64,000 nucleotides of DNA from Acidobacteriota bacterium (lineage in GTDB: Bacteria; Acidobacteriota; Blastocatellia; RBC074). The notes under the pieces were generated by a model, which worked only from the letters and a program-made list of their open reading frames with translations, did not search any database and was not told the DNA's origin. The stretch lies in contig JAEUQO010000341.1 in NCBI GenBank assembly GCA_016789605.1, forward strand, positions 7,751 to 71,750, written 5' to 3'. The position numbers were made by a program, and so were the translations under genes. This document shows positions 44,601 to 64,000 of the stretch, piece after piece (positions within the stretch are counted from its first letter, which is position 1; every line of letters begins with the position of its first letter).

Positions 44601-44797
44601 GCGTGCTGGTCAGCCTTTGGAACATCAATGACCAGGCGACCGCAGACTGGATGGAGCGGTTTTACCGCGAATTGCTAGGAAAAGGGCAGAGTCCTGCTGC
44701 CGCCCTGCGCGCGGCGCAAATCGCTCTTTGGCAAGAGAAACAATGGCAAGCGCCCTATTACTGGGCAGCATTTGTCCTGCAAGGCGAGCCACGCTAA
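41696..44797 (+). CDS. Secreted or membrane-anchored PPC-like / TPR / CHAT-domain protein
   Basis: Start is ATG 41696; the track gives TTG 41681. It has an N-terminal hydrophobic segment (IALLSTLTITGLLLFSSFF) and a pre-peptidase-C-like beta domain (AHAYRVQLGAGQYLRIAVEQ...AGHYLIKIEE). Multiple TPR_12-type repeats follow (NLGALQEASRNYREALSYFQQAL). The CHAT dyad context is YLHFATHG and LVVLSGCRTG. Confidence 0.85.
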   Translation: MIRLLPPFVSNSVVSSLRKRPSIALLSTLTITGLLLFSSFFPQVSEGQSTPLTTQHEETLEQGAVRERAISIGEAHAYRVQLGAGQYLRIAVEQHGVAVTTAVFLENGIPSNEKGIPQPSEKATSQKLIEVDSAGIERASVISTDAASYRIVIQASKSQSAGHYLIKIEEKRPAYPQDQTRVAAEKAMADAVQFTRQNKREALLKSAELYRMALGLWQSLPDRQMADRQQEARARYLLALRHQDLGDIQQGIGHALEALAISRETFDRIRETAVLNALGSMYFALGDKMKAVAYFEQALSASRIINDQATELAVLINMGVAYKSAGASAQAIDIYQQALPTARAIGDLTVEAAALTNLARLYDLQGDRQRALEHNQQALKLWRKLENTDGEATALKNLGALQEASRNYREALSYFQQALALSETLGDLHREAHIRGDLARLYRTQGDLKNSGAQIERSLAIFESLRGKLVSPDLRSSFLAAQRRYYEFYVSLLMQMHQAQPSAGHDTAALRVSERARARSLVEMLQEARTDIRQGVDISLLERERSLEQMLQAKEQERLRLSKRKAPVAAVAEVEQALLSLSTEYEQVQTKIRQASPHYASLTQPQILSLADMQKQLVSADTLLLEYGLGEERSFLWVVSDTSLQSFSLPPRAEIEQTVRKFYEALTARGRTVKFETEEKRQARIARADAEYAALAQSLSQMLLGPARELLGQKRLLIVPDRVLHYVPFGALPETRLAGQAQDATPLIVNHEVVHLPSATSLAVLRQEIAQRPPAPKSIAVLADPVFDSADQRVKAVVSQKVSSTDNVAQHTGSLAWLRDEMASSLQNACPEVDRVETRESMVRLPYTRKEAQAIMSLAPTANSKIALDFDADRKAATDSALGQYRYLHFATHGLLNDKHPALSGLALSFVGRNGVEQDGYLRAMDIFNMKLPAELVVLSGCRTGLGKEVRGEGMIGLTRSFMYAGAARVLVSLWNINDQATADWMERFYRELLGKGQSPAAALRAAQIALWQEKQWQAPYYWAAFVLQGEPR

Positions 44798-46915: not shown

Positions 46916-47237
46916 GGCATTTTTCGTTGAGTTTCAGTGTTCTGCGAAACGCGAGGCATTCTAGCGTAGCTACAGTTTCTTAGGGGAAAGTAGCTTCGAA
47001 AATGCCACGCAAGATCAGTCGTTTGAAGTTTACAATTCTTCCTGCGTAAAGCTCCCTCAGAGTGTGGTTATTGCTAGCTACACAAGGAGCCGCACGCAAA
47101 ACATTCTCGCCGGCTACGTCTCCCACAACTTCCCGGCTGTACAAAATCATTTCAGAACTATTGTTCGCAGGCCCATTTTTGCGGGGACACTTTTATGTCT
47201 CCAGGGAGTTGTGTGCCTGCTACTTGCGGAGTTTGCC

Positions 47238-47555
47238 ATGTCACATATTTCTACCTCTCATACATCCGTGAAACCGAATGACTCTGCGCCGATCCCGTCG
47301 GGACGGCGTGCGCTGGCCTGGGGACTGGCGTGGCTGCTAACGCTTGCTGTCTTACTCACCGGACTTTCTTTTGCCGTATGGGGACCGCAATGGATGCGCC
47401 ACGTCAGGCCGGCGACAGCCACTTCCGCACCCGTTCAAGGGCGCGATGCTGTACGCGAAGACGCCTCTGCCAACCCGGACGAAGCCGCGCCAACGTTGGA
47501 AGAAGAGAAGCATGAATCCAACGGCGATGATGTGTTGGTTCGTATCGAACGCTAG
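47238..47555 (+). CDS. Small membrane-anchored hypothetical protein
   Basis: ATG 47238 is in frame with track ORF 47064..47555. It has a TM helix (LAWGLAWLLTLAVLLTGLSFAVW). I see no recognisable family and no clear RBS. Confidence 0.3.
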   Translation: MSHISTSHTSVKPNDSAPIPSGRRALAWGLAWLLTLAVLLTGLSFAVWGPQWMRHVRPATATSAPVQGRDAVREDASANPDEAAPTLEEEKHESNGDDVLVRIER

Positions 47556-48587
47556 GTTGGCCAGCGAGTCAGAGAGGGTTTTCCTTAACTACCCTGTCGC
47601 GTCTGTCTGTCGTGGGTGTAGGAAAGGTGGAAGCCTAGAGACCGTAGTACCGTCGAAAATGACACGCTGATTTTTCTGTTATCGCGCTACTCTCTCAATG
47701 GGCGAACGAAAAGACGGGCAACGAAATTTTCGAAGCATTCTCTGCCAGTCTTTTGGGGCGCGAGGCCGATGAAGAAGTTAGGGCGACGTTAACGCTGTAA
47801 CAATCTGTTCGCAGGGGGATTGTTTGGGCAGGCGTGATGATGAAGTCCACGGCATCGTGCTTGATTCGCTGCTCTGCAATAGCCATCGCGCAATAACGGG
47901 TTTGACGCGAACGGTTGTCGCAGCGCTTTTCACTCAACCAGGCTTCATTCGAGCGGGCCGGTCTTTCTTCACTGGGGGCCCAACGCTCTATCGCGGATGA
48001 ACGTCTGGCCGTCTCCGGTTTGGCTGGGTCGTGGGGATGCAAGCCAAACCGGAGGCGACTAATCGGTGGTTTTGATCGGTGTATGGGAAAGGATGCTGCC
48101 TGCCGTCAGGTGCGCGGCTATCAGTAGCGCTTGCGACTGTTGCGTCAGATTTTCTGGGCTTGCCTACACTTTCCATTCGAACAAAGAGATGGCCTCTCCC
48201 ACTAGAGGCAACGTTTCCACGCGCATTCTGCGCGATCTTCAACGCGACAAATTGTTGCTCTGCCGCGCACAGGCTTCTACGTGATGAGTTGCTGTTGGGC
48301 TGAGCTTGCGGTGAAACGCTCGTCAGCAAACAGCGGCGACGCTTGCTTTGGCATTCGCCGGTAATCGTAGACCTTGGCCCAGGCAGATCGTCAGGCTTGA
48401 AGAATGATTTTATCCCGCTCGTGCGCTTGATTGTGGGGTGGCGCTCAAAGCGGGGAAGAGGCTGAGGCGAGCAGCCTGGGGCGCCTCAGCCAGAGTTTCT
48501 TCGTCGCCGGTGATTTATCGTCCGGCAATAGGTTTCGGCATTGTAAGCCAGTCTTTTTCATTGGGACCTACAGGTAAGGATCAAGTT

Positions 48588-49373
48588 ATGGTTTCACTAA
48601 CATCCAGTTCACCAGTGCCCAACTCGAAACACCCCATTTTGATCATCTGTGAACAGCGCCTGGTTGGTGAAGGCGTCAAGCTGTTGGTCAACGCGCAACC
48701 CGATATGGAGGTCGTGCGCGAAGTACAGCAGTATTCTGAAGCAATCCCCTTGTTGCAGGCCTGCCAGCCCGAAGTGGTTATCTTTGTACCGGGAGAGCCA
48801 CGTTGTTCCCAGACTGATGTGTCAGCGCAAATTCCTGAAATCGTTTCGCGTCTAAAAAACGCTTATGCCAAAGCCAAAGTGCTCGTGTTGGCTGCCGCAC
48901 GCGATGTTGGTTCAGTACGTCAATTTCTCAAAGCTGGCGCGTCTGGTTGTCTGTTGACTTCCGCACCGACCCAGGCGTTGTTTCAGGCGATTCGCACGTT
49001 GGCTGGCGGTGGCGTTTACCTGGATGATGATTTGATTGACACCTTTGTTTCGTTGCTTGCTCCCCGGCCAATAGGGCACTTGCGCAACGCGGGCGGTGAA
49101 TTGACTGCCCGCGAGGAAGAGGTGTTGCGCTTTGTTGCCCGCGGATTGCAAACGCGCGAAATTGCCGCGCGGTTAAAAATTGGCATCAAGACGGTTGATA
49201 CGCATCGCGCGCGCGCAATGAGGCGCTTGAACCTACACCGGCGCGCGGAAGTGGTGGCATATGGCGTCAGACACGGTTGGCTCACCGACGCAGGAGAAGA
49301 CGCGGACAATCTGCCAGGCCGTTCGGGGCCTAAAGAGTTGCGGAGTTTGAAACAGGCTGGCGCGCTCATGTGA
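48588..49373 (+). CDS. LuxR/NarL-family regulator with a degenerate (pseudo-)receiver domain
   Basis: AAGGA lies 7 nt upstream of ATG 48588. The C-terminal HTH is LTAREEEVLRFVARGLQTREIAARLKIGIKTVDTHRARAMRRL. The receiver-like N-terminus lacks the phospho-chemistry residues (see findings). Confidence 0.8.
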   Translation: MVSLTSSSPVPNSKHPILIICEQRLVGEGVKLLVNAQPDMEVVREVQQYSEAIPLLQACQPEVVIFVPGEPRCSQTDVSAQIPEIVSRLKNAYAKAKVLVLAAARDVGSVRQFLKAGASGCLLTSAPTQALFQAIRTLAGGGVYLDDDLIDTFVSLLAPRPIGHLRNAGGELTAREEEVLRFVARGLQTREIAARLKIGIKTVDTHRARAMRRLNLHRRAEVVAYGVRHGWLTDAGEDADNLPGRSGPKELRSLKQAGALM

Positions 49374-49397
49374 GCGTGTTCAGCCTGTTTTTGTTTT
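49350..49397 (+). terminator. Rho-independent terminator overlapping the regulator stop codon
   Basis: AAACAGGCTG (49350-49359) pairs with CAGCCTGTTT (49381-49390), followed by TTGTTTT. The TGA stop at 49371-49373 lies in the loop. Confidence 0.7.
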
Positions 49398-49609
49398 ACG
49401 AACACCTAACGTTGTATCCAGCAGCAATTGTTGGTTGACCCCCAGACATGGGCGGCAGGCAGTGCGGTCTGTCATCCGTGGTGGGAGCGGTCTGTCTTTC
49501 TGGCGGCAGTCTCACCGCCGCCAACTTGCAGGCGTGTGTGATCCCGCTTTGCACACGCCAGGGGAATTCCCCGCAAGATCATTGAAATCACTGAACATCA
49601 AGAAACACT

Positions 49610-52600
49610 ATGCAAATTACACACACTCTCACACAGTTCATTCGCACACTCCTCGGCGCACTCTCCCGTAGACGGCGGGCGCACATCGCAGGAGCAAAAA
49701 CAAAAGCAAAACACAATTCAGAGAGCGGCGGTCCCGCACAACCGGGACGCAGCCCAGAATTGAGCCCGCGCCTGCTGGCCCGGAACGGTGTGTTCCAGCG
49801 TGGGCGCGTCGTGCTGTCTTTGCTGGTGTTATTGGTGATTCTGACTACCTCAGCAGTCTTTTTGACCTCAACAGCACGAGCATTTGGTTGGTCACAGGCA
49901 TATACAAAAGTCGCATCCGTGCTGAGCAACGGTAAGCAATACCTGTCTGCTTGGATGGGGGGGGCGAATGGGAGCGAGCTTACGCCTGCCGCTTGCACCT
50001 TAACGCAGGAAGTGACCGTCAGCAGTTGTTATTACACCACAGGCTCAAGAGCGACGGTCAGTGTCGAAGTTGCCTGGACCGGTGCGATTAATGGCGACAC
50101 GATCACCGTTTCACTTGATGGCGGAGCGCAAACGCGCACCATCAAACCGGAATCATTGTACGACCCCGGAACGGGATCTGCTGTGGCAGGGCCTATTTCA
50201 TCACCACAAGTTGTGGCCTTTGAAATCACTGCTGATGGCGCGGCACACACGATTTCTTCTTCGCTTTCAGGCGCAATGAGCTGTGGCGCAGGAACGACCA
50301 ATTTCAACGCGCCAGCAGGCTGTGTTCCGAACCTGTGCACTTCAGGTGAATTGGGCGGCACGGTGTATTTTGATTATGACGCCGATGGCGTGAAAGATTC
50401 CGGTGAAACGAATGGCGCCGCAGGCGTCACAGTGATGGCCTTTGACGTGAACGGAACCACATACAGCGCCACCAGTGATTCGGCGGGGCGCTATGAGTTC
50501 AGTGCCGCCAATGGAAATGCGATTCCTGCCGGTTCCTACCCGGTCCGTTTAGAGTTCACGAATTTACCTGCCAGCGGTTTTCAGACCACGACACCGCACG
50601 GTGCCAATAACTCTACCAGCGTACAATTTGCTGCTAGCTCAGCCTGCAATTTCGATCTCGGTGTGATGGAGCAAATCGGATTCTGTCAAGATAATCCATA
50701 CGTTGTAACGCCGTGTTACGTGAACGGCGATCCAGCACCGACAAGCGGTTCTAATCTGGCAGGCGATGGTGATGCGTTGGTCGCCTTTCCTTATAACAGT
50801 TCTGGCGGACCGACGCCGGCGACGATGTTGCATCTGGCTACAGCGCGTCAGGTCGGGTCAGTTTGGGGCGTAGCCTATAACAAATTCACGAAGAAGGTCT
50901 TCACTTCGGCAATGTTGCGTCGTCACGTAGGACTTGGGCCGCAGGGATTAGGTGGTATGTACGTCACTGATATGACTGTCCCAGCTTCAGCCACGACCAG
51001 CAATTTTATTGATGTCGTAGCCGATCTGGGCATTGACGTCGGGCAGGCTTCTGTGCCGAGTGTGGCAACCAGAGGTTTATCATCAAACAAAACCAACCCC
51101 AGTTATGACACGGCGGTGTTTGGCCTGGTCGGTAAAGTGGGTATCGGCGACATAGATATTTCCGATGATGGCAATACGCTATGGTTCGTTAACCTATTCG
51201 ATAAAAAACTTTATGGTTTAGATCTCACGGCTTACAACACCAGCAACACTCTGCCGACCTCTGCTGAGATTCTCTTTTCAACCACAATCCCTGGGCCGAC
51301 GTGTACAAACGGAACGATCCGGCCCTGGGGCGCGAAGTTTAAAGGCGGCAAGTTATACGCTGGGTCGGTCTGTGACGCCAGCAGTGGCGGTTCTTCAGAC
51401 TTAAGAGCCCGCGTTTCGTATTTTGACCCCTCGACAAATCTCTGGACGACCGCCTTTGAATTTCCTCTGACCTATCCCAAAGGCTTTCCCATTTTCAGTT
51501 TGCCGCAGGCTACTGGTTGGTATCGGTGGACGGACAGTTTTGCCGAAGTTACGACATTCAACGGTCTTTTTGATGCTGGGTTTGGAACCGGAACGATGGT
51601 TGAGCGCCCGCAGCCCATCCTGTCGGATATTGAATTCGATTTGGATGGAACAATGATCCTCACATTGATGGATCGGCAGGGGCTTCAACTGGGCTACATG
51701 AATTATGGTCCTAACTCTCCTGACACAACGCTCTACATGACCTCAGTTGGTGGTGATGTGCTTCGGGCCTTCTCATCAAATGGCGCATACATTCTCGAAA
51801 ATAATGCCCAGGCCGGTCCTGAGACCGGGGCCGGGCCAAATAACAATCAGGGGCCAGGGTTCGGCGAGTTTTACAACGATAACTGGATTGTCAATGGTTT
51901 CCTGGCGCATACCGAACATTCCATGGGCGCGCTGGCACTAAAACCCGGATCAGGCGAAACAATCAACGTCGTGATTGACCCTGTTAATAACACGCCAAAT
52001 TCAGGTGGGGTCAGATGGTTGAGTAACACATCAGGTCAGCCAAACAGGTCATATAACGTTTACACAGGCAGCGCCAATGGTGGTGTCGGCGGAAACGGTC
52101 TCTTTGGCAAAGCGGTTGGGCTAGGCGATGTGGAGTTGACCTGCGAACCAGTGAGTTACTTGGAGATCGGCAACCGCCTTTGGATGGACACGGATCGCGA
52201 TGGGGTGCAAGACCCGGGTGAAATGCCAATTGCTGGTGTGACATTGCGGTTATACACCCCGGCAGGCAGAGACGGCATCGCGGGGAACGCGGATGATCTG
52301 ACCCCCATTGCCACTGCGGTGACAGATGCCAATGGTACGTTCTATTTCACTTCACAGGATGCCAATGAGGATGGCATCCCTGACAGTGATGCCAATACCG
52401 CGAACAATACAGGCCTGGTGGGCGGCGGCGCAGCCAATCCAACTTATCCAGCGATTCAACCGAACACCCGCTATGTCATTCGTGCAGATCGTCCGCAAGA
52501 CTATCAATCGGGTGGGGCTTTGTATGGCAAGCTGCTGACAGCGGCAGATTTTGGTAGCGGAACGTTGGGCAGCCCGGCTGATTTGCGCGATTCTGACGCA

Positions 52601-55600
52601 GCTCTGGCGAACGTGCTGGGGATTGCAGGTGGCAATTTTCCAGAGGTCGAGGTCAAACATCTAGTCAATGGCGCTCCGACCAATGGCACGGGGGCGTTTG
52701 GCGAAGATGATCACACGCTCGATATGGGGTTCCAGGCATTTTATGACTTTGGCGATGCGCCTGATCCGACCTTCCCAACACTGTTGGCAAACAACGGCGC
52801 CAGACACGTCATTGTTGCAGGTGTTCATCTGGGCGCCGGCGTGGATGATGATGCCGACGGGCAACCAGGCGTCAACCACGACGGTGACGACAACGACGTT
52901 GACGGCGATGATGAAGACGGCGTTGTTTTGCCGACCTTGATCGCCGGGCAAACTGCCACGATTCAGGTTACGGCCAGTGTGGCTGGTATCCTGAACGGCT
53001 GGATTGACTGGAATAACGATGGCAGTTGGGGGGCTGGCGAACAGATCTTTAACGATCTGGCTGTCGTCGCAGGTATAAACAACCTGAACATCAACGTTCC
53101 GTTGGGCGCGGTGCAGGCGACGGTTTGTACGCGCTTCCGGTTTGTGGCCGCAGCGGATGGCAACGCCGCCGTCAATTCACCCACCGGCCAGGCGCCCAGC
53201 GGTGAAGTCGAAGACTATCCCGCGACCGTCCTCAAAAACATCTCCCTCGGCAACCAGGTCTTTTACGACACCAACAACAACGGCCTGCGCGATGGTGGCG
53301 AAGCCGGTATCAATGGGGTCGTCGTGGAACTCTATGCCGATAGCGATATGAACGGCACTCCTGATACGGCCTTCCCGCTGGATCGCAAGACCACTGCCAC
53401 AGTCGGTCTGACAGATGGGTTGTTCCTGTTTACGCAACAGACCCTCAATACCACAACGGGCGTAGCGCTGGGCGCGCCGATCGGGTTGATACCTGGCAAA
53501 TATGTGGTGTGTTTGCCTGCCTCGAATTTCACCGGCACTGGTGCGCTGGTCGGATTGTGGAGCAGTGGCACGACCGCCGGACTCACGGGCGCAACTACCG
53601 AAACGACTGCGCCGGATCCCAACACGGGCGGTGCGGTCAGCAATCCTGGCATTGACAACGACGACAACGGCACGCGCGACGGCAGCGGCAAAGTGCTCAG
53701 CCGTACGATTGATGTCGGCATAAACGAGCCGCTGACGGAAAACCCATACAACAACAACGACGCCACCGTGCCGGATACGCTCAGCAACCTGACCGTGGAC
53801 TTCGGGTTCTATGGGCTGAGCGTCGGCAACCTGGTCTTTAATGACGGCGGCGCGGGCGGCAATTACAACAATGCTGCGTTCGATTCCGGCGAAACCGGGA
53901 TCGGCGGCGTGACCGTGCGGCTCTATGCCGAAAACGGCACGTCGTTGCTGATGACCAAGACAACGGACAACAACGGCAAATATCTGTTCCCCGGATTGGC
54001 TGCCGGCAAGTATTACGTTGAAGTCGTGCGCGACGCGGTGCTCAATGGTTTTGTGAGCAGCCGCGACGGCGTGAATGTCAACAACACGAACGCCGCCGAT
54101 AGCGACGACAACGGCCCGCAAGCCAATGTTACGCCGAGTGCCGTGCGCAGCCCGCAGATCATGCTGGTCGCCGGCGACAGCACGGCCACGGGCGAAAGCG
54201 ATCAGGCGCAATCTGCCTCGCCGGGCTTCGGTAATCCGGCGATGACCGACAACGCGGCCACGCCGGACGCAAACTCCAACCTGGAAGTGGATTTCGGGTT
54301 TGTGCGTGTCTATAGCCTGGGCAACCGTGTCTGGAAAGACCTGGACAACAGCGGCACGCTCAATGGCAGCGAAGTTGGCATTGACAACGTCACGCTGCGG
54401 TTGCTGGTTTCACCGGCATTGACGCAAGCCACCGACCTTTATGGGGCGACCATCGCGGATCAAACCACTGCAAGCGGCGGTTACTTCCGCTTCGACAATG
54501 TGCCGCGCGGCGATTATGTAATCGAAGTGCGCGCCACCAATTTCTCGGGCGTGCTCAACGGTTGTATCAGCAGCACGGCTGACGCTGGCGATCCCGATAC
54601 CGACACCGATGACAGCGATGACAATGGCGTCGGCTCCACGCCGAATGTCAGCAACGGCATTCGCAGTGTGGCGGTGACTTTGGGCGAAGGCAGCGGCACC
54701 GCCGAACCCATCAACGACAACGATCCGGCCACGAATCCGCAAACCAACGAAGCGCCGGACAATCAATCCAACCGCACGGTGGATTTTGGCTTCACGCCGA
54801 TTTACAGCCTGGGCAATCGTGTCTGGAAAGACCTCAACAACAGCGGCACGATTGATGCGGCGGATGGCGGCACGCCGGGTGTGGATGGCGTGATCGTGCG
54901 TTTGCTCAACGCCAACACGTTGGCGCAAGCCACGGATTACACCGGCGCACTCGTGGCGGATCAAACCACGAGCGGAGGCGGTTATTACCGCTTTGATAAC
55001 TTGCTGGCGGGCGATTATGTGGCCGAAGTCCGCGCCGCAAACTTCACTGGTGTCGGCGTGCTGGTGGGCTGTATGTCCAGCAGCGCAGATGCCGGTGACC
55101 CCGATACCGATGTTGACGATAGCGACGACAACGGCGTCGGTATTGCGCCCAATGTGACCACGGGCATTCGCAGCGCCGCGATTACCTTGGGACCGGCTGT
55201 CGGCAGCGAACCTACCAACGACAACGATCCGGCGACCAACCCGCTGCCGGGTGAAGCGCGCAACGATCAATCCAACCGCACGCTCGATTTCGCTTTTGTG
55301 CCGGTTTACAGCCTGGGCAACCGGGTTTGGGAAGACCGCAACAACAACGGCGCCTTTGACGGCGGCGAAAACAGCATTGACGGTGTGTTTGTGCGGCTGC
55401 TGGATGGCACGGGCGCACCCGCCAGTGACATCTTCGGTACGCCAGTGCCTGATCAGACAACGAGTGGCGGCGGTTATTACCGGTTCGACAACTTGCTGAC
55501 GGGCGATTACATCGTCGAAATCATTTCGGCCAACTTCACCAGTGGCGTCTTGCAAGGCACGGTCAGCAGCGTGCCTGACGCGGGCGATCCGGATGTTGAC

Positions 55601-58600
55601 CAGGATGACAACGACGACAACGGCGTTGGTGTTTTCCCCGGCGCAAACGGCGTGCGCAGCCTGGCTGTGACGCTCGGTCCCGGATTGGGAACAGAGCCGA
55701 CCACCGACAATGATCCGACAACCAATCCGCTGCCGGGCGAAGCGCCTAACGGCCAATCCAACCGTACAGTGGATTTCGGCTTCGTGCGTGTTTACAGCCT
55801 GGGCAATCGCGTGTGGCGCGATTTGAACAACAGCGGCACGATTGACGCGGCGGATGGGGCCACGCCGGGCATCGCGGGCGTGCAAGTGCGCTTGCTCGAT
55901 AGCGCGGGCGTGCTCTCGGCGCGTGACATCGAGGGCAAAGTTATTTCGCCGGTGGTGACCGATACAGACGGTTGCTATCGCTTCGACCTGCTGCCCGCCG
56001 GGGATTACATCGTCGAAATCGGCGCGGTCAGCTTCCAGACGGGCGGGCCGTTGGTCAATCACACGTCCAGCACCGGCGCGTTCGCGACCACTGGTCCGAA
56101 CGAACCCGGACCCGACCCGGACACCAATCCGAACGACAACGATGACAACGGCACGATGCAGTATGCCAACAACACACCGTTGTCGGCCCGCAGCGCCGTG
56201 ATCACGCTCGGCGAAGGCAACGGCCAACAAGAACCGACACCAGACGCTGACGAATGCGTGGGCGATCCGGGCGCGTTCACCACCGATAACCAGTCCAACC
56301 TGACCGTGGATTTCGGATTTGTACCGCTGCTCAGTTTGGGCAACGTCGTGTGGAAAGACGTCAACAACAACGGCATTTTTGAGCCGCCGGCTGAAACGGG
56401 GGTTGCGCTGGTGACGTTGAATCTCTATCGCGACAACGGAGCAACGCCGGGAGCCTTCGACGCGGGTGACACGCTGGTGACTTCAACGGTGTCCAGCGGC
56501 GGTTCTGTCGGAACCGAAGGACGCTACCTGTTTACGGGCTTGTTGCCGGGCGATTATTTGGTGCAGGTTGCGCCGCTTAACTTCCAGGCCGGTGGCGCGT
56601 TGTTGGGCTGTCTGAGTTCCACCACCACCACGCCTGATCCTGACACGCCGTTGCCGATTGGCGGCACGGATGACGACGACAACGGTATAGACAATCCAAC
56701 GCCTGCGACAGGCGGTATTGTCAGCGGCGTGATTTCGCTCTTCCCCTTTGGCGAGCCCGATACGCCGATTGATACCGATGGCACGCTCGGCAACCTGACG
56801 CTGGATTTCGGATTCTACAGCACGCTGAATCTGGGCAACCTGGTTTGGAAAGACAACGACAACGACGGCACGCGCGATGCGGGCGAACCCGGCATTGATG
56901 GTGTCGCTGTTGAGCTCTTCCTTGACCGCAACAACAACAATACCCTTGAGCCAACGGGCGGCGACGCTCCGGCGTTTGCCACGACCTCGACAGTAAACGG
57001 AGGCTTCTATAACTTTACCGGATTGGTGCCGGGCAATTTCTTCGTGCGTATCCCGCCGACGGAATTCCAGGGGCCGAATGGACGGTTGCTGAATTGTTTC
57101 AGCTCGACGCCCTCCGAGACCACGCCAAACAACGACGTAGACAACAACGACAACGGCTTGCAACAAGGCACGCCCGCGACCGACGGTGTTTACAGCGGTT
57201 TGGTGACCATGCAACCCAACACGGAGCCTGACACCAACGTAGACACTGATGGCCGCAGCGGTAACCTGACGGTTGACTTCGGTTTCTATGGTCAGGTCAG
57301 TCTGGGCAACCTGGTCTGGAAAGACATGAACAACAACGGTCTGCGCGATAACGGCGAACCGGGCGTTGGTGATGTCACAGTCCTGGCCTATCGTGACGAT
57401 GGCAACAATACCTTCGACTTGCCTGCGGATCAGTTGGCAGGCACGGCGACGACCAGCACTGCGCCAGCGACGTTGGGACAATACCTGTTCCCGAATCTGG
57501 CGCCGGGGAATTACTTCGTCGTCATCCCGGCGGCGGAGTTCCAAGCGGGTGGTGATTTGTTCGGCTGTCTCAGTTCGACCCAAACAGCCACCGATCCCAA
57601 TGCACCACCCGCTGTCGGGGGCGTGGATAACGACGACAACGGTCTGGACAATCCTGCGCCCGCTTCAAATGGCATCGTCAGCGGTTTGGTTTCGCTGACG
57701 CAAAACGGCGAGCCACCGGCCAATTTGGACGGCGACGATGCCAATGGCAATTTGACGGTGGATTTCGGCTTCTATTCGCCGATGACGCTGGGCAACCTGG
57801 TTTGGAAAGACGTCAACAACAATGGCGTGCGCGATCTGGCGCCGACGCCTGAAGCAGGTATCGGCAACGTCACGGTGCAACTCTACCGCGACAACGGCGA
57901 CGGTCAGTTCGTGCTCGGTCCTGATGTGTTCGTCACTTCGACCACAACCAGCACTGCTCCGGCGACGTTGGGCCAGTATCAATTCCCGGGTCTGTTGCCG
58001 GGCAATTACTTCGTGGTGATTCCGGCGGCGGAATTCCAGACAGGCGGCGATCTGGCGGGTTGTCTCAGTTCGACGCCGACCGAACTCAATCCCAACGCGG
58101 ATGGCGACAATAACGACAACGGCCTGAACAGCACGACGCCTGCGACCACGGGCATCACCAGTGGTTTGGTCACGTTGCTCAGCCAGACCGAGCCGCCGGT
58201 CGTGACCGACGGCGACGACATCAACGGCAATCAGACGGTGGACTTCGGGTTCTATGCCACGCTGACGCTGGGCAATCTGATCTGGAAGGATTACGACAAC
58301 GACGGTGTGCGTGATTTGACGCCCACGCCTGAACCGGTCGTACCGAACGTGACCATCGAACTGTTCGCCGATCGCAACAATAACAACACCTTTGAACCGA
58401 ACGGTGCTGATGCTCCGCGCGTGGCTGTCACCGTGACAGACGCCAACGGTCTCTATCAATTCAGCAACCTGTTGCCGGGCGATTACTTCGTGTTGGTGTC
58501 GGCCAGCAACTTCCAGACGGGCCAACCGCTGGCGGGCTGCCTGAGTTCGACCGGCGCAGACACGACCGATCAGGTAGACAACAACGACAACGGTCTTGAC

Positions 58601-61600
58601 AGTGCCACGGCGGCCAACAACGGCATCGTCAGCACGCGCGTGACGCTGACCGGTTTGGGCGAACCTGCCGCAGGCGTGGACGGCGACGACACCAATGGCA
58701 ATCAGACGATTGACTTTGGTTTCTATCCGCCGCTCAGCCTGGGCAACTTGTTGTGGAAAGACCTCGACAACGATGGTGTTTTTGACAACAACGAACCGCT
58801 GGTCAACGGCGTGACCGTTGAACTGTTCCTCGACCGCAACAACAGCAACTCGCTCGAACCGACCGGAGCCGATGCGCCAGTGTTGCAAACGACGGTTTCG
58901 GCCAACGGCGGAAAATACCAATTCAACGGTTTGGCGCCGGGCACCTATTTCGTGCGCATCGCCGCCAGCAACTTCGCGCCGGGCGGAGTGCTCGAAGGCT
59001 GTCTCAGTTCGACGGGCAATGATCCGGGCGACAGCACGGACAACAACGACAACGGTATTGATAACCCGACGCCGACCAACGGTGGCGTGGTGACGCCGCC
59101 GATCCCGGTCAGCGGCAATACCGAACCGCCTACCAACGTGGACGGCGACGGTCCCAACGGCAACCAGACGATTGACTTCGGTTTCATTCCACAAATGGGC
59201 CTGGGCAATCTGGTTTGGAAAGACAACAACAACAACGGCGTGGTGGATGCGGGCGAACCGGGCATCGGCAATGTCACGGTCGAGCTGTATCGCGAAACCA
59301 ACAGCACGGCAGGTCTGCAACTGGGCGGCGGCGGCGATACGCTGGCCGGATCGGTCACGACCAGCGCAGTGCCGGCCACACTTGGTCAGTACAACTTCAC
59401 GAATCTGGTGCCGGGCACGTATTACGTGCGCATTCCGGCGGCGGAATTCGCGGTTGGCGGCGATCTGGCGGGCTGCTTCAGCTCGACGGTCACCACGACC
59501 AATCCCAACCTGCCGCCGAACGTGGGCGGTGTGGACAATGATGACAACGGTCTGGATGCGGCAACGCCTGCCACCACCGGACTCAACACCGATGCCATCG
59601 TGCTGGTGGGTTCGCTCGAACCGCCGCTGCCGGTTGATGGTGACGACAACAATGGCAACCAGACAATTGATCTGGGCTTCTATCCGCCGATGTCGTTGGG
59701 CAATTTGGTCTGGAAAGACTACGACAACGACGGGCAGCGCGACACAGCCAACCCGGCAGAGCCAGGTGTGGGAGGAGTAACGGTTGAACTGTGGCGTGAC
59801 AACGGTGACGGCGTGTTCAATCCGGCTTCTGATGGTGCCCCGGCAGGCACGCCGCTCACCACCAGCACCAGCAGCGCACCCGCCACATTGGGGCAATATC
59901 AATTCACGGGTCTGTTGCCGGGCAACTATTTCGTGCGCATTCCGGCGGCGGAGTTCGCGGTGGGGGGCGATCTGGCGGGCTGTCTCAGTTCGACGGTCAG
60001 CGACCTAACGCCCAACAATGACGAAGACAATGACGACAACGGCCCGGACAATCTGACTCCGGCCACGGGCGGCATTGTCAGCAACCTCGTCACCTTGCTG
60101 GGGAACAGCGAACCGCCCCCAGGCGTGGACGGCGATGACGCCAACGGCAACCAGACGGTTGACTTTGGTTTCTACACGCCGATGACGCTGGGCAATCTGG
60201 TCTGGAAGGATTACGACAACGACGGCGTGCGTGATCTGACGCCAACGCCGGAACCGGGTGTCGCCAATGTCGTGGTTGAGTTGTATCGCGACAACGGCAA
60301 CAACAGCTTCCAACCGAATGCCGATACGCTGGTCACCACCACGACCACGGGCGCAAACGGTGATTACAGCTTCAGCAACCTGCCGCCGGGCGTGTACTTC
60401 GTCCGTCTGGCAGCGAGCAACTTCGCGTCGGGTGGCGTGCTGGCGGGCTGTCTCAGCTCCACGGGCGCTGACAACGGCGATGTGGACAACAACGACAACG
60501 GTGTGGATGGTTCCAATCCGCCACTGGATGGCATCGTCAGCACGCCCGTGACGTTGATCAACACGACTGAACCGAATACGCCAGTGGACGGCGACGACAC
60601 GAACGGCAATCAGACGATTGATTTCGGTCTGTATGCGCCGCTTACGTTGGGCAATCTGGTTTGGAAGGATTACGACAACGACGGCGTGCGCGACACAGCC
60701 AATCCGGCGGAACCCGGCGTAGCGGGCGTCACGGTGCAACTGTACCGCGAAACCAACAGCACACCCGGACTGCAATTGGGCGGCGGCGGCGACACGCTGG
60801 CGGGAACGGCCCAGACCGATACGTTGGGACTCTACAGCTTCAACGGCTTGGTGCCAGGCGACTACTACGTGCGCATTCCCGAAACGGAATTCGCCACGGG
60901 CGGTGATCTTGCCGGTTGTCTGTCCTCTGAACCGACCGAAGCCACGCCGAACAGCGATGGTGACAACAACGACAACGGTGTCAACAACCCGACGCCGCAA
61001 ACCAGCGGCATCGCCAGCGGTGTGGTCACCCTGACGGGCAACAGCGAACCGACCAATGACGGTGACGGCCCGAACGGTAACCAGACGGTGGACTTCGGCT
61101 TCATTCCGCAAATGACGCTGGGCAACCTGCTCTGGAAAGACTTCGATAACGATGGCGTGCGCGACACGGTCAACCCGGTCGAACCCGGGGTGGGCAATGT
61201 CACACTCGAACTCTATCGCGAAACCAACGGCACGGCGGGATTGCAACTGGGCGGCGGCGGCGACCAACTCGTCGGCACGACGACGACCAGCAACACGCCC
61301 GCGACCTTGGGGCAATACAGCTTCACCGGCTTGGCTCCGGCGACCTACTACGTGCGCATTCCGGCGGCGGAATTCGCCACGGGCGGAGACCTGGCCGGTT
61401 GCTTGTCTTCCGAACCGACCGAGCTTGATCCCAACGCCGACGGCGATAACAACGACGATGGCGTGAACAACCCGAATCCGGGTGTGAACGGCATCAATTC
61501 CGGCCCGGTCGTGTTGATTGGCAACAGCGAACCTGCCAACGAAGGTGACGGCACCAATGGCAACCAGACGGTGGACTTCGGCTTCATTCCGCAAATGACG

Positions 61601-64000
61601 CTGGGCAACCTGGTCTGGAAAGACCTCGACAACGACGGGCAGCGCGACCTGACGCCCACGCCGGAAGCTGGCGTCGGCAACGTCACGGTTGAGTTGTATC
61701 GCGAAGCCAACGGCACGGGCGGATTGCAAATCGGCAGTGACACGCTGATTGGTACGACAACGACCAGCGCGGTGCCTGCGACCTTGGGGCAATACTCCTT
61801 TGGCAACTTGCCTCCGGCGGTGTACTACGTGCGCATTCCGGCGGCAGAGTTCGCCACAGGCGGTGATCTGGCAGGCTGTCTCAGCTCAACGCCGACTGAC
61901 CTCGATCCGAACAACGATCAGGACAACGATGACAACGGCATTGACAGCGCCACTCCTCCCGCGAGCGGCATTGCCACCGGCCCCATCGTCTTGATCGGCA
62001 GCAGGGAGCCGGATACCGCGGTTGACGGCGACAACAACAACGGAAACCAAACCATTGACCTGGGCTTCTATCCGCCGATGTCGTTGGGCAATCTGGTCTG
62101 GAAAGACCTCGACAACGACGGTCAGCGCGATCTGACGCCCACGCCGGAACCCGGTGTTGGCAATGTCACGGTCGAACTCTATCGCGACAATGGCAACGGT
62201 CAGCTTGATCTGCCGGGCGACACGTTGACGGCGGTGACGACAACCAGCAACGCGTCGGCCACGCTCGGAGCCTACAGCTTCAACAACCTTTCGCCGGGCA
62301 ATTACTTTGCGCGTATTCCTGCCGCAGAGTTCCAACCAGGCGGCAGTCTGGTCGGTTGCCAAAGCTCTACGCCGACGGTGACTGACCCGAACAACAACGT
62401 GGACAACGACGACAACGGCATTGATAGCGCCAATCCGGCCAGTAACGGCGTCACGACCGGTCTGATCGTGCTCGTTGGCACAACCGAACCTGACACGGCG
62501 GTGGATGGCGATGACACCAATGGCAACCAGACGGTGGACTTCGGCTTCTTTGCGCCGCTCAGTTTGGGCAACCTGGTGTGGAAAGATTACGACAATGATG
62601 GTCAGCGCGATCTGACCCCGACGCCGGAACCCTGCGTGGCCAACGTCACGGTCGAACTCTTCCGCGATAACGGCAACAGCACCTTTGAACCGGGTACGGA
62701 TCAACTGGTGACCAGCGTGCTCACGGCGACAAACGGCGAATACCGGTTCAACAATCTGCAACCCGGTAACTACTTCGTGCGTGTCGCTCCGGGCGAGTTC
62801 ACCTCGGGCGGTGATCTGTTCGGTTGCGCCAGTTCGACGCCGACGGTCAGCAATCCGAACAACGACGTAGACAACGACGACAACGGCATTGACAACGCCA
62901 ACCAGCCAGTCAATGGCGTCGTCAGCGGCTTGATTGCGTTGCAGGCGGGCACCGAACCTGACACGGCGGTGGATGGTGATGGCACCAGCGGCAACCAGAC
63001 GATTGACTTCGGGTTCTTCACGCCGATGACCTTGGGCAATCTGGTGTGGAAAGACCTGAACGACAACGGCAAGCGCGATACGTCGCCTGCGCTCGAACCG
63101 GCGGTCGCCAATGTCACGGTCGAACTTTTCCGCGACAACGGCAACAACACCTTTGATCCGCCGAACGATCCGCTGGTGGATTCAAAGACCACCAACAGCA
63201 ACGGCAACTACCAATTCACCAACCTGCCGCCGGGCAATTACTTCGTGCGCTTGCCAGCCAGCAACTTCACCAGCGGTGGCGCGTTGTTTGGTTGCAGCAG
63301 CAGCTCTGTCACGGCCAGCGACCCGAATACGGACGTTGACAATGACGACAACGGGCTGAACACGAGCAACCCGCCTGCGGCGGGAGTCGCCAGCGGTTTG
63401 GTGATCCTGGTGGGCAACAGCGAACCCGACACGCAAGTGGACGGCGACGGTCTGTTTGGCAACCAGACGGTGGACTTCGGATTCGTGACCGGTAGCCTGC
63501 AATTGGGCAACCTGGTGTGGAAAGACACCAACGGCAACGGGTTGCGCGAAGCCACTGAACTGCCGGTCGCCAATGTGCTGCTCGAACTGTTCCGTGACAG
63601 CAATGGTAACCAGAGTTTGCAGCCGGGCACTGACACGCAGGTCGCAACCACGACCACCGATGCCAACGGCAAGTATCTGTTTGCCAATCTGACGCCGGGC
63701 GATTACTTCGTCCGCGTCGCGAGCAGTAACTTTGCGGGCAACGGGCCGCTGGCTGGTTGCGTCAGCACGCTGGGCAGCCAAACCGCCAACAACGACCGCG
63801 ACAACGATGACAACGGCTCGGATAGTTTGAATCCGGCGGCCAATCCTCCGGCGTCGAGCGTTATCACCCTGACCCAAAACGGCGAACCTGACACCGCCGT
63901 GGATGGTGATGATCGTAACGGCAACCAGACGATTGACTTCGGCTTCTACAATCCGCTGACGGTGAGCATTACCGATCCGGCGACTTGTGTGGGACCGGGT
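49610..64000 (+). CDS. Giant secreted repeat protein (unknown head domain, GEVED domain, more than 20 SdrD-B-like Ca-binding modules), 3'-truncated by the window edge and absent from the supplied ORF track
   Basis: Hand translation in the frame starting at 49610 is open to nt 64000. A TGA at 49592-49594 closes the frame upstream. GTG 49790 is an alternative start giving the signal peptide VVLSLLVLLVILTTSAVFLTSTARA/FGW. No + strand ORF in this frame appears in the track, consistent with one unterminated ORF. Motifs are FYDFGDAPDP...SGEVEDY (GEVED domain, about 52740-53215) and repeated LGNLVWKDxDNDGxRD...NGxYxFxxLxPGxYFVRI...GCLSST...DNDDNG...VDGDDxNGNQTVDFGFY. Confidence 0.9.
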   Translation, partial: MQITHTLTQFIRTLLGALSRRRRAHIAGAKTKAKHNSESGGPAQPGRSPELSPRLLARNGVFQRGRVVLSLLVLLVILTTSAVFLTSTARAFGWSQAYTKVASVLSNGKQYLSAWMGGANGSELTPAACTLTQEVTVSSCYYTTGSRATVSVEVAWTGAINGDTITVSLDGGAQTRTIKPESLYDPGTGSAVAGPISSPQVVAFEITADGAAHTISSSLSGAMSCGAGTTNFNAPAGCVPNLCTSGELGGTVYFDYDADGVKDSGETNGAAGVTVMAFDVNGTTYSATSDSAGRYEFSAANGNAIPAGSYPVRLEFTNLPASGFQTTTPHGANNSTSVQFAASSACNFDLGVMEQIGFCQDNPYVVTPCYVNGDPAPTSGSNLAGDGDALVAFPYNSSGGPTPATMLHLATARQVGSVWGVAYNKFTKKVFTSAMLRRHVGLGPQGLGGMYVTDMTVPASATTSNFIDVVADLGIDVGQASVPSVATRGLSSNKTNPSYDTAVFGLVGKVGIGDIDISDDGNTLWFVNLFDKKLYGLDLTAYNTSNTLPTSAEILFSTTIPGPTCTNGTIRPWGAKFKGGKLYAGSVCDASSGGSSDLRARVSYFDPSTNLWTTAFEFPLTYPKGFPIFSLPQATGWYRWTDSFAEVTTFNGLFDAGFGTGTMVERPQPILSDIEFDLDGTMILTLMDRQGLQLGYMNYGPNSPDTTLYMTSVGGDVLRAFSSNGAYILENNAQAGPETGAGPNNNQGPGFGEFYNDNWIVNGFLAHTEHSMGALALKPGSGETINVVIDPVNNTPNSGGVRWLSNTSGQPNRSYNVYTGSANGGVGGNGLFGKAVGLGDVELTCEPVSYLEIGNRLWMDTDRDGVQDPGEMPIAGVTLRLYTPAGRDGIAGNADDLTPIATAVTDANGTFYFTSQDANEDGIPDSDANTANNTGLVGGGAANPTYPAIQPNTRYVIRADRPQDYQSGGALYGKLLTAADFGSGTLGSPADLRDSDAALANVLGIAGGNFPEVEVKHLVNGAPTNGTGAFGEDDHTLDMGFQAFYDFGDAPDPTFPTLLANNGARHVIVAGVHLGAGVDDDADGQPGVNHDGDDNDVDGDDEDGVVLPTLIAGQTATIQVTASVAGILNGWIDWNNDGSWGAGEQIFNDLAVVAGINNLNINVPLGAVQATVCTRFRFVAAADGNAAVNSPTGQAPSGEVEDYPATVLKNISLGNQVFYDTNNNGLRDGGEAGINGVVVELYADSDMNGTPDTAFPLDRKTTATVGLTDGLFLFTQQTLNTTTGVALGAPIGLIPGKYVVCLPASNFTGTGALVGLWSSGTTAGLTGATTETTAPDPNTGGAVSNPGIDNDDNGTRDGSGKVLSRTIDVGINEPLTENPYNNNDATVPDTLSNLTVDFGFYGLSVGNLVFNDGGAGGNYNNAAFDSGETGIGGVTVRLYAENGTSLLMTKTTDNNGKYLFPGLAAGKYYVEVVRDAVLNGFVSSRDGVNVNNTNAADSDDNGPQANVTPSAVRSPQIMLVAGDSTATGESDQAQSASPGFGNPAMTDNAATPDANSNLEVDFGFVRVYSLGNRVWKDLDNSGTLNGSEVGIDNVTLRLLVSPALTQATDLYGATIADQTTASGGYFRFDNVPRGDYVIEVRATNFSGVLNGCISSTADAGDPDTDTDDSDDNGVGSTPNVSNGIRSVAVTLGEGSGTAEPINDNDPATNPQTNEAPDNQSNRTVDFGFTPIYSLGNRVWKDLNNSGTIDAADGGTPGVDGVIVRLLNANTLAQATDYTGALVADQTTSGGGYYRFDNLLAGDYVAEVRAANFTGVGVLVGCMSSSADAGDPDTDVDDSDDNGVGIAPNVTTGIRSAAITLGPAVGSEPTNDNDPATNPLPGEARNDQSNRTLDFAFVPVYSLGNRVWEDRNNNGAFDGGENSIDGVFVRLLDGTGAPASDIFGTPVPDQTTSGGGYYRFDNLLTGDYIVEIISANFTSGVLQGTVSSVPDAGDPDVDQDDNDDNGVGVFPGANGVRSLAVTLGPGLGTEPTTDNDPTTNPLPGEAPNGQSNRTVDFGFVRVYSLGNRVWRDLNNSGTIDAADGATPGIAGVQVRLLDSAGVLSARDIEGKVISPVVTDTDGCYRFDLLPAGDYIVEIGAVSFQTGGPLVNHTSSTGAFATTGPNEPGPDPDTNPNDNDDNGTMQYANNTPLSARSAVITLGEGNGQQEPTPDADECVGDPGAFTTDNQSNLTVDFGFVPLLSLGNVVWKDVNNNGIFEPPAETGVALVTLNLYRDNGATPGAFDAGDTLVTSTVSSGGSVGTEGRYLFTGLLPGDYLVQVAPLNFQAGGALLGCLSSTTTTPDPDTPLPIGGTDDDDNGIDNPTPATGGIVSGVISLFPFGEPDTPIDTDGTLGNLTLDFGFYSTLNLGNLVWKDNDNDGTRDAGEPGIDGVAVELFLDRNNNNTLEPTGGDAPAFATTSTVNGGFYNFTGLVPGNFFVRIPPTEFQGPNGRLLNCFSSTPSETTPNNDVDNNDNGLQQGTPATDGVYSGLVTMQPNTEPDTNVDTDGRSGNLTVDFGFYGQVSLGNLVWKDMNNNGLRDNGEPGVGDVTVLAYRDDGNNTFDLPADQLAGTATTSTAPATLGQYLFPNLAPGNYFVVIPAAEFQAGGDLFGCLSSTQTATDPNAPPAVGGVDNDDNGLDNPAPASNGIVSGLVSLTQNGEPPANLDGDDANGNLTVDFGFYSPMTLGNLVWKDVNNNGVRDLAPTPEAGIGNVTVQLYRDNGDGQFVLGPDVFVTSTTTSTAPATLGQYQFPGLLPGNYFVVIPAAEFQTGGDLAGCLSSTPTELNPNADGDNNDNGLNSTTPATTGITSGLVTLLSQTEPPVVTDGDDINGNQTVDFGFYATLTLGNLIWKDYDNDGVRDLTPTPEPVVPNVTIELFADRNNNNTFEPNGADAPRVAVTVTDANGLYQFSNLLPGDYFVLVSASNFQTGQPLAGCLSSTGADTTDQVDNNDNGLDSATAANNGIVSTRVTLTGLGEPAAGVDGDDTNGNQTIDFGFYPPLSLGNLLWKDLDNDGVFDNNEPLVNGVTVELFLDRNNSNSLEPTGADAPVLQTTVSANGGKYQFNGLAPGTYFVRIAASNFAPGGVLEGCLSSTGNDPGDSTDNNDNGIDNPTPTNGGVVTPPIPVSGNTEPPTNVDGDGPNGNQTIDFGFIPQMGLGNLVWKDNNNNGVVDAGEPGIGNVTVELYRETNSTAGLQLGGGGDTLAGSVTTSAVPATLGQYNFTNLVPGTYYVRIPAAEFAVGGDLAGCFSSTVTTTNPNLPPNVGGVDNDDNGLDAATPATTGLNTDAIVLVGSLEPPLPVDGDDNNGNQTIDLGFYPPMSLGNLVWKDYDNDGQRDTANPAEPGVGGVTVELWRDNGDGVFNPASDGAPAGTPLTTSTSSAPATLGQYQFTGLLPGNYFVRIPAAEFAVGGDLAGCLSSTVSDLTPNNDEDNDDNGPDNLTPATGGIVSNLVTLLGNSEPPPGVDGDDANGNQTVDFGFYTPMTLGNLVWKDYDNDGVRDLTPTPEPGVANVVVELYRDNGNNSFQPNADTLVTTTTTGANGDYSFSNLPPGVYFVRLAASNFASGGVLAGCLSSTGADNGDVDNNDNGVDGSNPPLDGIVSTPVTLINTTEPNTPVDGDDTNGNQTIDFGLYAPLTLGNLVWKDYDNDGVRDTANPAEPGVAGVTVQLYRETNSTPGLQLGGGGDTLAGTAQTDTLGLYSFNGLVPGDYYVRIPETEFATGGDLAGCLSSEPTEATPNSDGDNNDNGVNNPTPQTSGIASGVVTLTGNSEPTNDGDGPNGNQTVDFGFIPQMTLGNLLWKDFDNDGVRDTVNPVEPGVGNVTLELYRETNGTAGLQLGGGGDQLVGTTTTSNTPATLGQYSFTGLAPATYYVRIPAAEFATGGDLAGCLSSEPTELDPNADGDNNDDGVNNPNPGVNGINSGPVVLIGNSEPANEGDGTNGNQTVDFGFIPQMTLGNLVWKDLDNDGQRDLTPTPEAGVGNVTVELYREANGTGGLQIGSDTLIGTTTTSAVPATLGQYSFGNLPPAVYYVRIPAAEFATGGDLAGCLSSTPTDLDPNNDQDNDDNGIDSATPPASGIATGPIVLIGSREPDTAVDGDNNNGNQTIDLGFYPPMSLGNLVWKDLDNDGQRDLTPTPEPGVGNVTVELYRDNGNGQLDLPGDTLTAVTTTSNASATLGAYSFNNLSPGNYFARIPAAEFQPGGSLVGCQSSTPTVTDPNNNVDNDDNGIDSANPASNGVTTGLIVLVGTTEPDTAVDGDDTNGNQTVDFGFFAPLSLGNLVWKDYDNDGQRDLTPTPEPCVANVTVELFRDNGNSTFEPGTDQLVTSVLTATNGEYRFNNLQPGNYFVRVAPGEFTSGGDLFGCASSTPTVSNPNNDVDNDDNGIDNANQPVNGVVSGLIALQAGTEPDTAVDGDGTSGNQTIDFGFFTPMTLGNLVWKDLNDNGKRDTSPALEPAVANVTVELFRDNGNNTFDPPNDPLVDSKTTNSNGNYQFTNLPPGNYFVRLPASNFTSGGALFGCSSSSVTASDPNTDVDNDDNGLNTSNPPAAGVASGLVILVGNSEPDTQVDGDGLFGNQTVDFGFVTGSLQLGNLVWKDTNGNGLREATELPVANVLLELFRDSNGNQSLQPGTDTQVATTTTDANGKYLFANLTPGDYFVRVASSNFAGNGPLAGCVSTLGSQTANNDRDNDDNGSDSLNPAANPPASSVITLTQNGEPDTAVDGDDRNGNQTIDFGFYNPLTVSITDPATCVGPG
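54317..63955 (+). repeat. In-frame tandem array of 21 repeat units of about 460-540 bp inside the giant ORF
   Basis: The (C/T)TGGGCAA(C/T) motif encoding LGN starts at 54317, 54809, 55313, 55799, 56336, 56831, 57302, 57788, 58268, 58739, 59201, 59696, 60188, 60647, 61118, 61601, 62084, 62564, 63032 and 63503. More divergent copies lie at about 52168, 53250 and 53825. Confidence 0.9.

Follow-up and report, generated by a model that had tools for sequence, protein, structure and literature searches.

Staphylococcal SdrC, SdrD, SdrE and SdrG, which belong to the MSCRAMM adhesins, place an N-terminal ligand-binding head ahead of a spacer of B-type Ig-fold repeats with acidic Ca2+ loops, in units of ~110 aa and 2–5 per protein (against 24 of ~160 aa in the protein described here). 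The RTX adhesins LapA, MpIBP and SiiE reach several thousand residues and join a tandem Ca2+-binding, Ig-like stalk to a ligand-binding region at one end. Each staphylococcal B domain binds three Ca2+ ions; with calcium the domains become stiffer and stronger, and unfold at forces above 2 nN (PMC6232131). On a larger scale, a survey of very large bacterial genes classed products of more than 10,000 aa as “large” and, from 30,000 aa upward, as “giant” (West-Roberts et al., bioRxiv 10.1101/2023.11.21.568195). Here we describe a gene in a stretch of 64,000 nucleotides (the window) from an Acidobacteriota assembly: positions 49610–64000 of its plus strand are almost certainly the first ~92% of one ~15.6 kb gene of a Blastocatellia (Acidobacteriota) genome. 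Like the staphylococcal proteins, its product would set an N-terminal head before B-type units with acidic Ca2+-type loops; unlike them, it lacks the N2–N3 IgG-like A domain and comes from a diderm acidobacterial host. With the RTX adhesins it shares the size class, the Ca2+-type Ig-like tandem stalk and a predicted ligand-binding region at one end. Like the large genes of the survey it is multi-kilobase and repeat-rich, with a predicted extracellular product of a kind implicated in attachment, whereas the protein would be ~5,200 aa long, has a single hydrophobic segment and contains no SecA-like domain.

In-frame translation of 49610–64000 (+) yields 4797 codons and 0 stops. A TGA lies at 49592–49594, the next start codon is the ATG at 49610, and from there the frame stays open to the last base of the window, as an earlier note made from the letters alone had claimed. 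With a stop probability of 0.034 per random codon, taken from the base composition of the region, the chance of 4797 stop-free codons is ~1e-73. Of the other five frames of the same interval, the codon-opposite antisense frame stays open for at most 779 codons and the rest for no more than 228. This is the largest gene of the window, the next-largest encoding 1264 and 1086 aa. The program-made list of open reading frames (ORFs) gives no plus-strand ORF at 49610–64000, because the window cuts the gene off and the list by design leaves out ORFs running off an end of its source, which bears out the explanation that the earlier note had offered. For annotation the consequence is tangible: a gene covering 22% of the window is absent from the list, seven spurious antisense ORFs stand in its place, and downstream steps trusting that list would mis-annotate the whole of 49610–64000.

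The product is rich in Gly (13.0%), Thr (10.2%), Asn (9.4%), Asp (9.1%) and Pro (6.9%), and the G+C content at third codon positions (GC3) is 0.69 overall, 0.54–0.55 in the first 3 kb and 0.69–0.77 in the repeat part, in keeping with the GC3-rich, Asp/Asn/Gly/Thr/Pro-rich gene anticipated from the letters. This rise within the gene separates the head-encoding 49610–52610 from 52610–64000; ten other genes of the window average 0.62. Candidate causes of the rise are codon bias of the residues that make up the repeats and biased gene conversion between units. The part of the protein inside the window has a mass of 495 kDa and an isoelectric point (pI) of 4.05, with 575 Asp+Glu versus 177 Lys+Arg. 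Among paralogous repeat units, the ratio of nonsynonymous to synonymous substitution rates (dN/dS) in the sense frame is 0.17–0.26 in all unit pairs compared, indicating purifying selection. Together with strong Pfam matches, namely SdrD_B (PF17210) at 954.3 bits against a gathering cut-off of 29.7, in 24 stretches, and GEVED (PF20009) at 51 bits against 24.4, and with the existence of full-length homologs, these values argue for one real gene.

Two alternatives concern the gene call itself. That the long frame is an assembly artifact or a decaying pseudogene, the true gene being much shorter, strikes us as very improbable. Repeat arrays are prone to misassembly, an exact search of genome contigs for the last 54 nt of the window gave no match, and ENA contigs of the same species with an identical AcrB stop at about window position 48460 or earlier, before the gene begins; however, its units are at most 74% identical in DNA and no exact repeat in it exceeds 51 nt, which leaves assemblers no ambiguity and makes misassembly of the array unlikely. 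Decay is equally hard to square with 4797 codons free of stops, with the low sense-frame dN/dS of every unit pair compared and with relatives of 3937–7971 aa. The other alternative, to which we give practically no credence, holds that there are real overlapping genes among the minus-strand ORFs, the longest of which measures 745 aa. Seven long ones are listed between 53177 and 63877: 53177–54211 (344 aa), 54410–56230 (606 aa), 56483–57583 (366 aa), 57665–59902 (745 aa), 60005–61792 (595 aa), 61886–62761 (291 aa) and 63182–63877 (231 aa). Their length, with up to 779 open codons, speaks for them; what sets that length speaks against. All seven lie in the frame whose codons pair one for one with those of the sense gene, as exact reverse complements, so that a stop requires a sense TTA, CTA or TCA, codons that are rare in the GC3-rich repeat region. 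The long gene contains 48 of these, 41 before 53177 and seven from there onward, and the seven late ones (53177, 54410, 56483, 57665, 60005, 61886 and 63182) coincide exactly with the antisense ORF boundaries. That long antisense ORFs occur only after 53177 follows from the higher GC3 of the repeat region.

The composition of the antisense products has the same origin. They are rich in Ala, Val, Arg and Gly, because the commonest sense codons of the repeat region (GGC, AAC, GAC, ACG and CCG) reverse to Ala, Val, Val, Arg and Arg, so the earlier expectation that a gene of this kind read backwards would look R/V/A/G-rich is met by its actual codon usage. A Pfam scan of the long antisense ORFs returned no match, their codon-usage score is 0.01–0.10 bits per codon versus 0.28–0.38 for the sense frame over the same spans, and dN/dS in the antisense frame between paralogous units is 0.78–1.41. 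The seven long minus-strand ORFs are artifacts of the codon usage of the sense gene, not genes, as the earlier note had held. A further minus-strand ORF of 136 aa (49588–49998) overlaps the start of the long gene and is probably another antisense by-product.

The protein opens with a putative export signal (aa 1–91; 49610–49882, +), recognized from the sequence and a hydropathy scan: a basic extension is followed by a hydrophobic segment at aa ~64–88, the only one in the protein, and then by an ARA/FG signal-peptidase-type site. An alternative start, GTG 49790, would give a signal peptide of canonical length, and the first 16 residues of the longer form weakly resemble the N-terminus of the homolog P0002 (E 0.045). 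A Tat signal was rejected, the RRRR run lying ~40 residues ahead of the hydrophobic core.

Behind the signal stands a conserved head of three domains, modeled with AlphaFold2 (AF2) over aa 127–860 from 50 aligned homologs, with a mean predicted local distance difference test score (pLDDT) of 90 and a predicted template modeling score (pTM) of 0.91. The first is a predicted Ig-like beta-sandwich (aa ~127–235; 49988–50314, +), with strands within residues 4–107 of the model numbering at a pLDDT of ~90 and with counterparts in the homologs. The second, at aa ~238–352 (50321–50665, +), is the first SdrD_B domain, matched by Pfam at E 3e-10 on an N-terminal fragment and reproduced in the model. The third, at aa ~355–845 (50672–52144, +), is in the model clearly a beta-propeller, and its 28 strands in aa ~364–819 suggest that it probably has seven blades. 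This region of ~490 aa has no Pfam, NCBIfam or PDB sequence match. A Foldseek search of the PDB, in contrast to sequence, places it with probability 1.00 among many propellers, at target-normalized TM-scores of up to 0.71 and identities of 6–12%; the matches include 1npe (TM 0.71), 3hfq (0.52), 3tc9, nidogen/LRP YWTD propellers, lactonases, BT_3476 of Bacteroides, YncE and Lp49. The head module as a whole (Ig-like domain, B domain and propeller) is conserved in more than 100 homologs across phyla. The propeller recurs at 35–70% identity over its ~490 aa in more than 100 proteins of Bacteroidota (Spirosoma, Fibrella, Runella), Chloroflexota, Acidobacteriota and Actinomycetota, and its position varies among these relatives, from N-terminal to internal (aa 866–1602 in P0006).

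The remainder of the window protein is almost entirely stalk. An SdrD_B unit with insertions, R00 (aa 846–1041; 52145–52732, +), identified by Pfam and unit alignment, is followed by the GEVED region (aa 1042–1205; 52733–53224, +), in which the Pfam match spans aa 1128–1204 and the GEVED motif itself stands at aa 1198. Thereafter come 22 tandem SdrD_B units of ~160 aa each, delimited by unit alignment: R01–R06 (aa 1206–2237; 53225–56320, +), also compared with homologs, and R07–R22 (aa 2238–4779; 56321–63946, +), 16 units of 153–165 aa for which Tandem Repeats Finder reports periods of 468–483 nt at a 74% match. Of the domain families that the earlier note had put forward, SdrD_B and GEVED are thus well above their cut-offs; Cna_B, the third, is not among the Pfam matches, although the related prealbumin-like models CarboxypepD_reg and SpaA overlap the same SdrD_B units.

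Each unit carries LGNLVWKD-DxDxDG..D near its start, DN(N/D)DNG in the middle and GD..GNQT(V/I)DFGF at its end. The window protein as a whole contains 48 D-x-[DN]-x-[DN]-G loops and 17 DN[ND]DNG motifs; the loop, extended as D-x-[DN]-x-[DN]-G..[DE], lies near the start of 24 domains, and the second loop, DN[ND]DNG, occurs in 17. PDB sequence searches with the head or with a single repeat unit gave nothing useful, whereas a profile of 21 units matches solved structures of SdrD B1/B2 (10ps_A, E 8e-21; 8vdk_A; 4jdz, E 4.5e-9), the alignment covering unit positions 2–82 only. These matches make the unit loops putative Ca2+ sites, without equating the second and third with Ca2 and Ca3 of SdrD. The calcium-binding, surface or secreted character that the earlier note had proposed thus fits the signal peptide, the pI, the acidic loops and the SdrD B profile match, all of them features of sequence.

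The stalk appears to have two histories. Units R02–R06 find one-to-one best matches in the homolog P0172, at 79, 75, 71, 62 and 51% identity respectively, and on this comparison are ancestral. Units R07–R22 are 50–73% identical among themselves versus 43–57% when set against the units of P0172, P0002, P0010 and the L007 protein; because they are closer to each other than to any homolog unit, they read as a lineage-specific expansion, sixteen units derived by tandem duplication within this lineage. Units of the R07–R22 type number about three in P0172 and two in P0002, and it is the sixteen lineage-duplicated units that make the stalk two to three times as long as that of relatives. These duplications are not recent: neighboring units share ~74% DNA identity.

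At 63947 the repeats give way to a different sequence. The last 54 nucleotides of the window (63947–64000, +) encode the first 18 residues, YNPLTVSITDPATCVGPG, of a conserved, non-repeat C-terminal region, as an alignment with P0002, P0010, P0128 and P0172 indicates. The window protein ends in ...NQTIDFGFYNPLTVSITDPATCVGPG, and the same junction reads FGFVTVLDLTLSDPAVCVGPG in P0172, FGFVNPLGVIVSDPITCLGPG in P0128, FGFLSPLMTIVENGGSCIGSG in P0002 and FGFVNPVAMQVASTAVCLGSG in P0010. Beyond this junction the four homologs carry 416–419 more residues, which places the true 3′ end beyond the window, as had been suspected, and by homology predicts a full protein of ~5213–5216 aa. In the homologs the region combines a sandwich of DUF11-like type with a ~290-aa domain that is strongly conserved and has the pattern SVLIYPIYTS ... 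GWMK ... IPVFPPxC. This domain stands at the extreme C-terminus, with an invariant last Cys across 13 sequences; the tails end in ...TIPVFPPxC with the stop at once or one residue later, while L009 reads on further. It was seen in L005–L012, L015–L021, P0128 and P0172, in contexts that range from DUF11 arrays (L009, L012) through a mixture of SdrD_B, HYR and DUF11 (L016) to SdrD_B arrays (L007 and the family of the window protein); L019 carries it by itself after a signal peptide, as a small secreted protein. Neither Pfam nor NCBIfam matched the C-terminal 434 aa of the homologs, and a C-terminal profile found no sequence match in the PDB. Scans of genome and metagenome contigs with the C-terminal alignment returned relatives 45–100% identical to P0002, none from this organism, and for the last 330 aa of the window protein the best homolog was at most 59% identical among the proteins listed, which extend to ~1.75 times the query length.

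Two paralogs, P0002 and P0010, come from metagenome-assembled genomes (MAGs) labeled “uncultured Heliobacteriaceae” (L005, CAYXVZ010000002.1; L006, CAYXVZ010000042.1; also L010). The other named carriers of the C-terminal region are Acidobacteriota MAGs, and the label looks like a taxonomic mis-assignment.

By sequence, the protein belongs to a widespread set annotated at NCBI as “SdrD B-like domain-containing protein”. Its first 1200 aa, searched against 1.84 billion cluster representatives, matched 13,665 clusters at E <= 1e-3, of which 4576 passed E <= 1e-30. The relatives include proteins of 3937–7971 aa, many with the same head module; that module (~aa 125–920) recurs among the best matches of the 4576 clusters, many of which match other parts of the query. 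Direct homolog searches listed no protein longer than ~1.75 times the query, the longest measuring 2112 aa where the query had 1210 aa and 577 aa where it had 330 aa, so that giant relatives came to light only among the cluster representatives. Examples of the set are P0172 (2752 aa), P0002 (1725 aa) and P0010 (2051 aa) from Acidobacteriota-type MAGs, a Caldilineaceae protein (MFN8488963.1, 4919 aa) and proteins of Spirosoma, Fibrella and Runella. They share the head module at 40–70% identity, SdrD_B arrays and, in some members, GEVED; P0172, P0002, P0010 and P0128 also share the C-terminal region. They differ in length, ~5215 aa being predicted here versus 1725–3166 aa in close orthologs and up to 7971 aa in distant relatives, and the window protein is the longest of the close orthologs seen because of its 16 lineage-specific units. 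Literature searches found nothing relevant on SdrD-B-like giant proteins in Acidobacteria and no experimental study of these family examples. The gene thus brings to Acidobacteriota, a phylum of soil and fresh water that has been little studied, a further predicted surface protein of large size with Ca2+-type repeats, together with two conserved modules that have no family model, the ~490-aa propeller head and the ~290-aa Cys-terminated tail.

Membership in better-known classes was considered, and that in the MSCRAMM, RTX and T9SS groups was rejected. For MSCRAMMs proper, the NCBIfam models score 434.7 versus 2500 (MSCRAMM_SdrD) and 339 versus 1700 (MSCRAMM_SdrC), and no (SD)n run or LPxTG occurs in the 4797 residues or in the homologs P0002, P0010, P0128 and P0172. 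An RTX adhesin exported by a type I secretion system (T1SS) is contradicted by the lack of any GG.G.D motif in the protein and of T1SS genes adjoining it in the window or beside the homologs. Moreover, where RTX adhesins use a C-terminal T1SS signal, the window protein has an N-terminal Sec-type signal peptide, so its orientation is probably opposite to theirs, with the head N-terminal. As cargo of a type IX secretion system (T9SS) it fares no better: the only match to a T9SS C-terminal domain (CTD) is internal (aa 3574–3604), partial (profile positions 32–66) and inside a repeat unit, no T9SS stretch passes on its own, and the C-terminal 434 aa of the homologs show no T9SS match. As for PEP-CTERM, the window does not include the protein’s own C-terminus, and the ortholog tails with their ...TIPVFPPxC ending have neither a hydrophobic helix nor a basic tail. 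The sorting signals that the earlier note had suggested looking for, PEP-CTERM, a T9SS CTD or a T1SS signal, thus find no support in the C-termini of the homologs.

Taken together, we favor, with moderate confidence, the reading of this protein as an exported, Ca2+-stiffened fibrillar adhesin or tether, a reading in which export, Ca2+ binding, adhesin function, an anchored end and the missing 3′ end are all inferred. The N-terminal signal peptide would direct Sec export, and the distal head, made of the Ig-like domain, one B-type domain and the beta-propeller, would bind a target ligand. The stalk would consist of 23 SdrD-B-type Ig-fold domains plus GEVED, with the acidic DxDxDG-type loops binding Ca2+ to make it stiff and mechanically strong, by analogy with the staphylococcal B domains; if each Ig-like domain contributes ~4–5 nm, we estimate its length to be on the order of 100 nm. 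Beyond the window would follow the DUF11-like domain and the conserved ~290-aa domain with its terminal cysteine, a candidate for attachment to the envelope by position, which is speculative. Support comes from P0172, whose domains follow one another as they do here, GEVED and counterparts of R02–R06 among them. Several points weigh against this reading. No secretion genes adjoin the gene in the window or its homologs elsewhere, although ~540 kDa must cross a diderm outer membrane. The propeller lacks a specific functional match, every Foldseek match being as distant as stated above, and the units are ~50 aa longer than staphylococcal B domains, with only their first halves aligning to solved structures, so that conservation of all three Ca2+ sites does not follow. 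The AF2 model of the C-terminal region, built from 6 sequences, reaches a pLDDT of 50, which leaves the anchoring role speculative, and contig and homology searches did not find this organism’s stop codon and last ~417 codons.

The same architecture could also belong to a released protein that serves as a scaffold of extracellular matrix or biofilm, or that buffers Ca2+, rather than to a cell-bound adhesin; we regard this as rather unlikely. It would suit the extreme acidity of the protein and the C-termini of the homologs, which bear no LPXTG, PEP-CTERM, T9SS CTD or RTX signal; the ~290-aa tail domain, found also as the small stand-alone secreted protein L019, need not anchor anything. Against release, anchored fibrillar adhesins typically show just this succession of head, stalk and tail, closed by a conserved terminal domain, and the strictly C-terminal placement of the tail domain, with its invariant final Cys, suggests a role specific to the terminus. 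Improbable, in our judgment, is a third possibility, in which the propeller head is an enzyme of lactonase, lyase or hydrolase type that the repeats display and space, as a tethered exo-enzyme. Its basis is the presence among the Foldseek matches of 6-phosphogluconolactonases (3hfq, 6nau, 4qrj), a PL24 lyase (6byp), strictosidine synthase and Diels-Alderases; at such low identities, however, binding-type propellers (nidogen/LRP YWTD, BT_3476, XusB and Lp49) match equally well, no catalytic family model matches the region and no catalytic residues were identified in it. Within the favored reading of a fibrillar adhesin or tether, it is a doubtful conjecture that the tail domain is a module, not described before, by which Acidobacteriota anchor proteins in the envelope or sort them. 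Were it true, this module and the propeller head, both lacking a family model, would together characterize fibrillar surface proteins of a new class, of which the gene in the window would be the longest close member, its tail domain being assigned by homology. The family could serve to study how Acidobacteriota export and anchor proteins of ~540 kDa that have no recognizable sorting signal.

The host is, by sequence, a Blastocatellia acidobacterium and a diderm; the best named matches of the Tex protein encoded in the window, at 80% identity, are from Blastocatellales and Blastocatellia MAGs. In five other genomes the neighbors of the homologous genes all differ (an MFS transporter, a TIR protein, HupE, an ATP-grasp protein and an aminotransferase), and no conserved operon, T1SS or sortase genes were found beside the homologs there. 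A functional link of the long gene to the NarL-type regulator gene or the CHAT–TPR gene upstream in the window was rejected, neither being conserved beside the homologs. The latter (41681–44797, +) encodes a 1038-aa protein with TPR repeats and a C-terminal CHAT (caspase-like protease) domain, for which PADLOC gave a generic TPR model only; it is flanked by ORFs without family matches at 40146–41063 (-), 44876–46915 (-, 679 aa) and 47064–47555 (+).

Directly upstream of the long gene, family matches identify a NarL/FixJ-type response regulator gene (48438–49373, +). An inverted repeat read in the sequence at 49352–49398 (+), AACAGGCTG ... CAGCCTGTT, followed by TTTTTGTTTT, spans the stop codon of this gene (49371–49373); a scan for the terminator consensus passed over it on account of its loop of more than 8 nt. 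The inverted repeat and its T-run probably form an intrinsic terminator, in which case the long gene would be its own transcription unit. In the response regulator itself, the longest ORF gave no exact match in a protein look-up and resembles known families only from about residue 64 on, so that the real start probably lies ~60 codons downstream of 48438.

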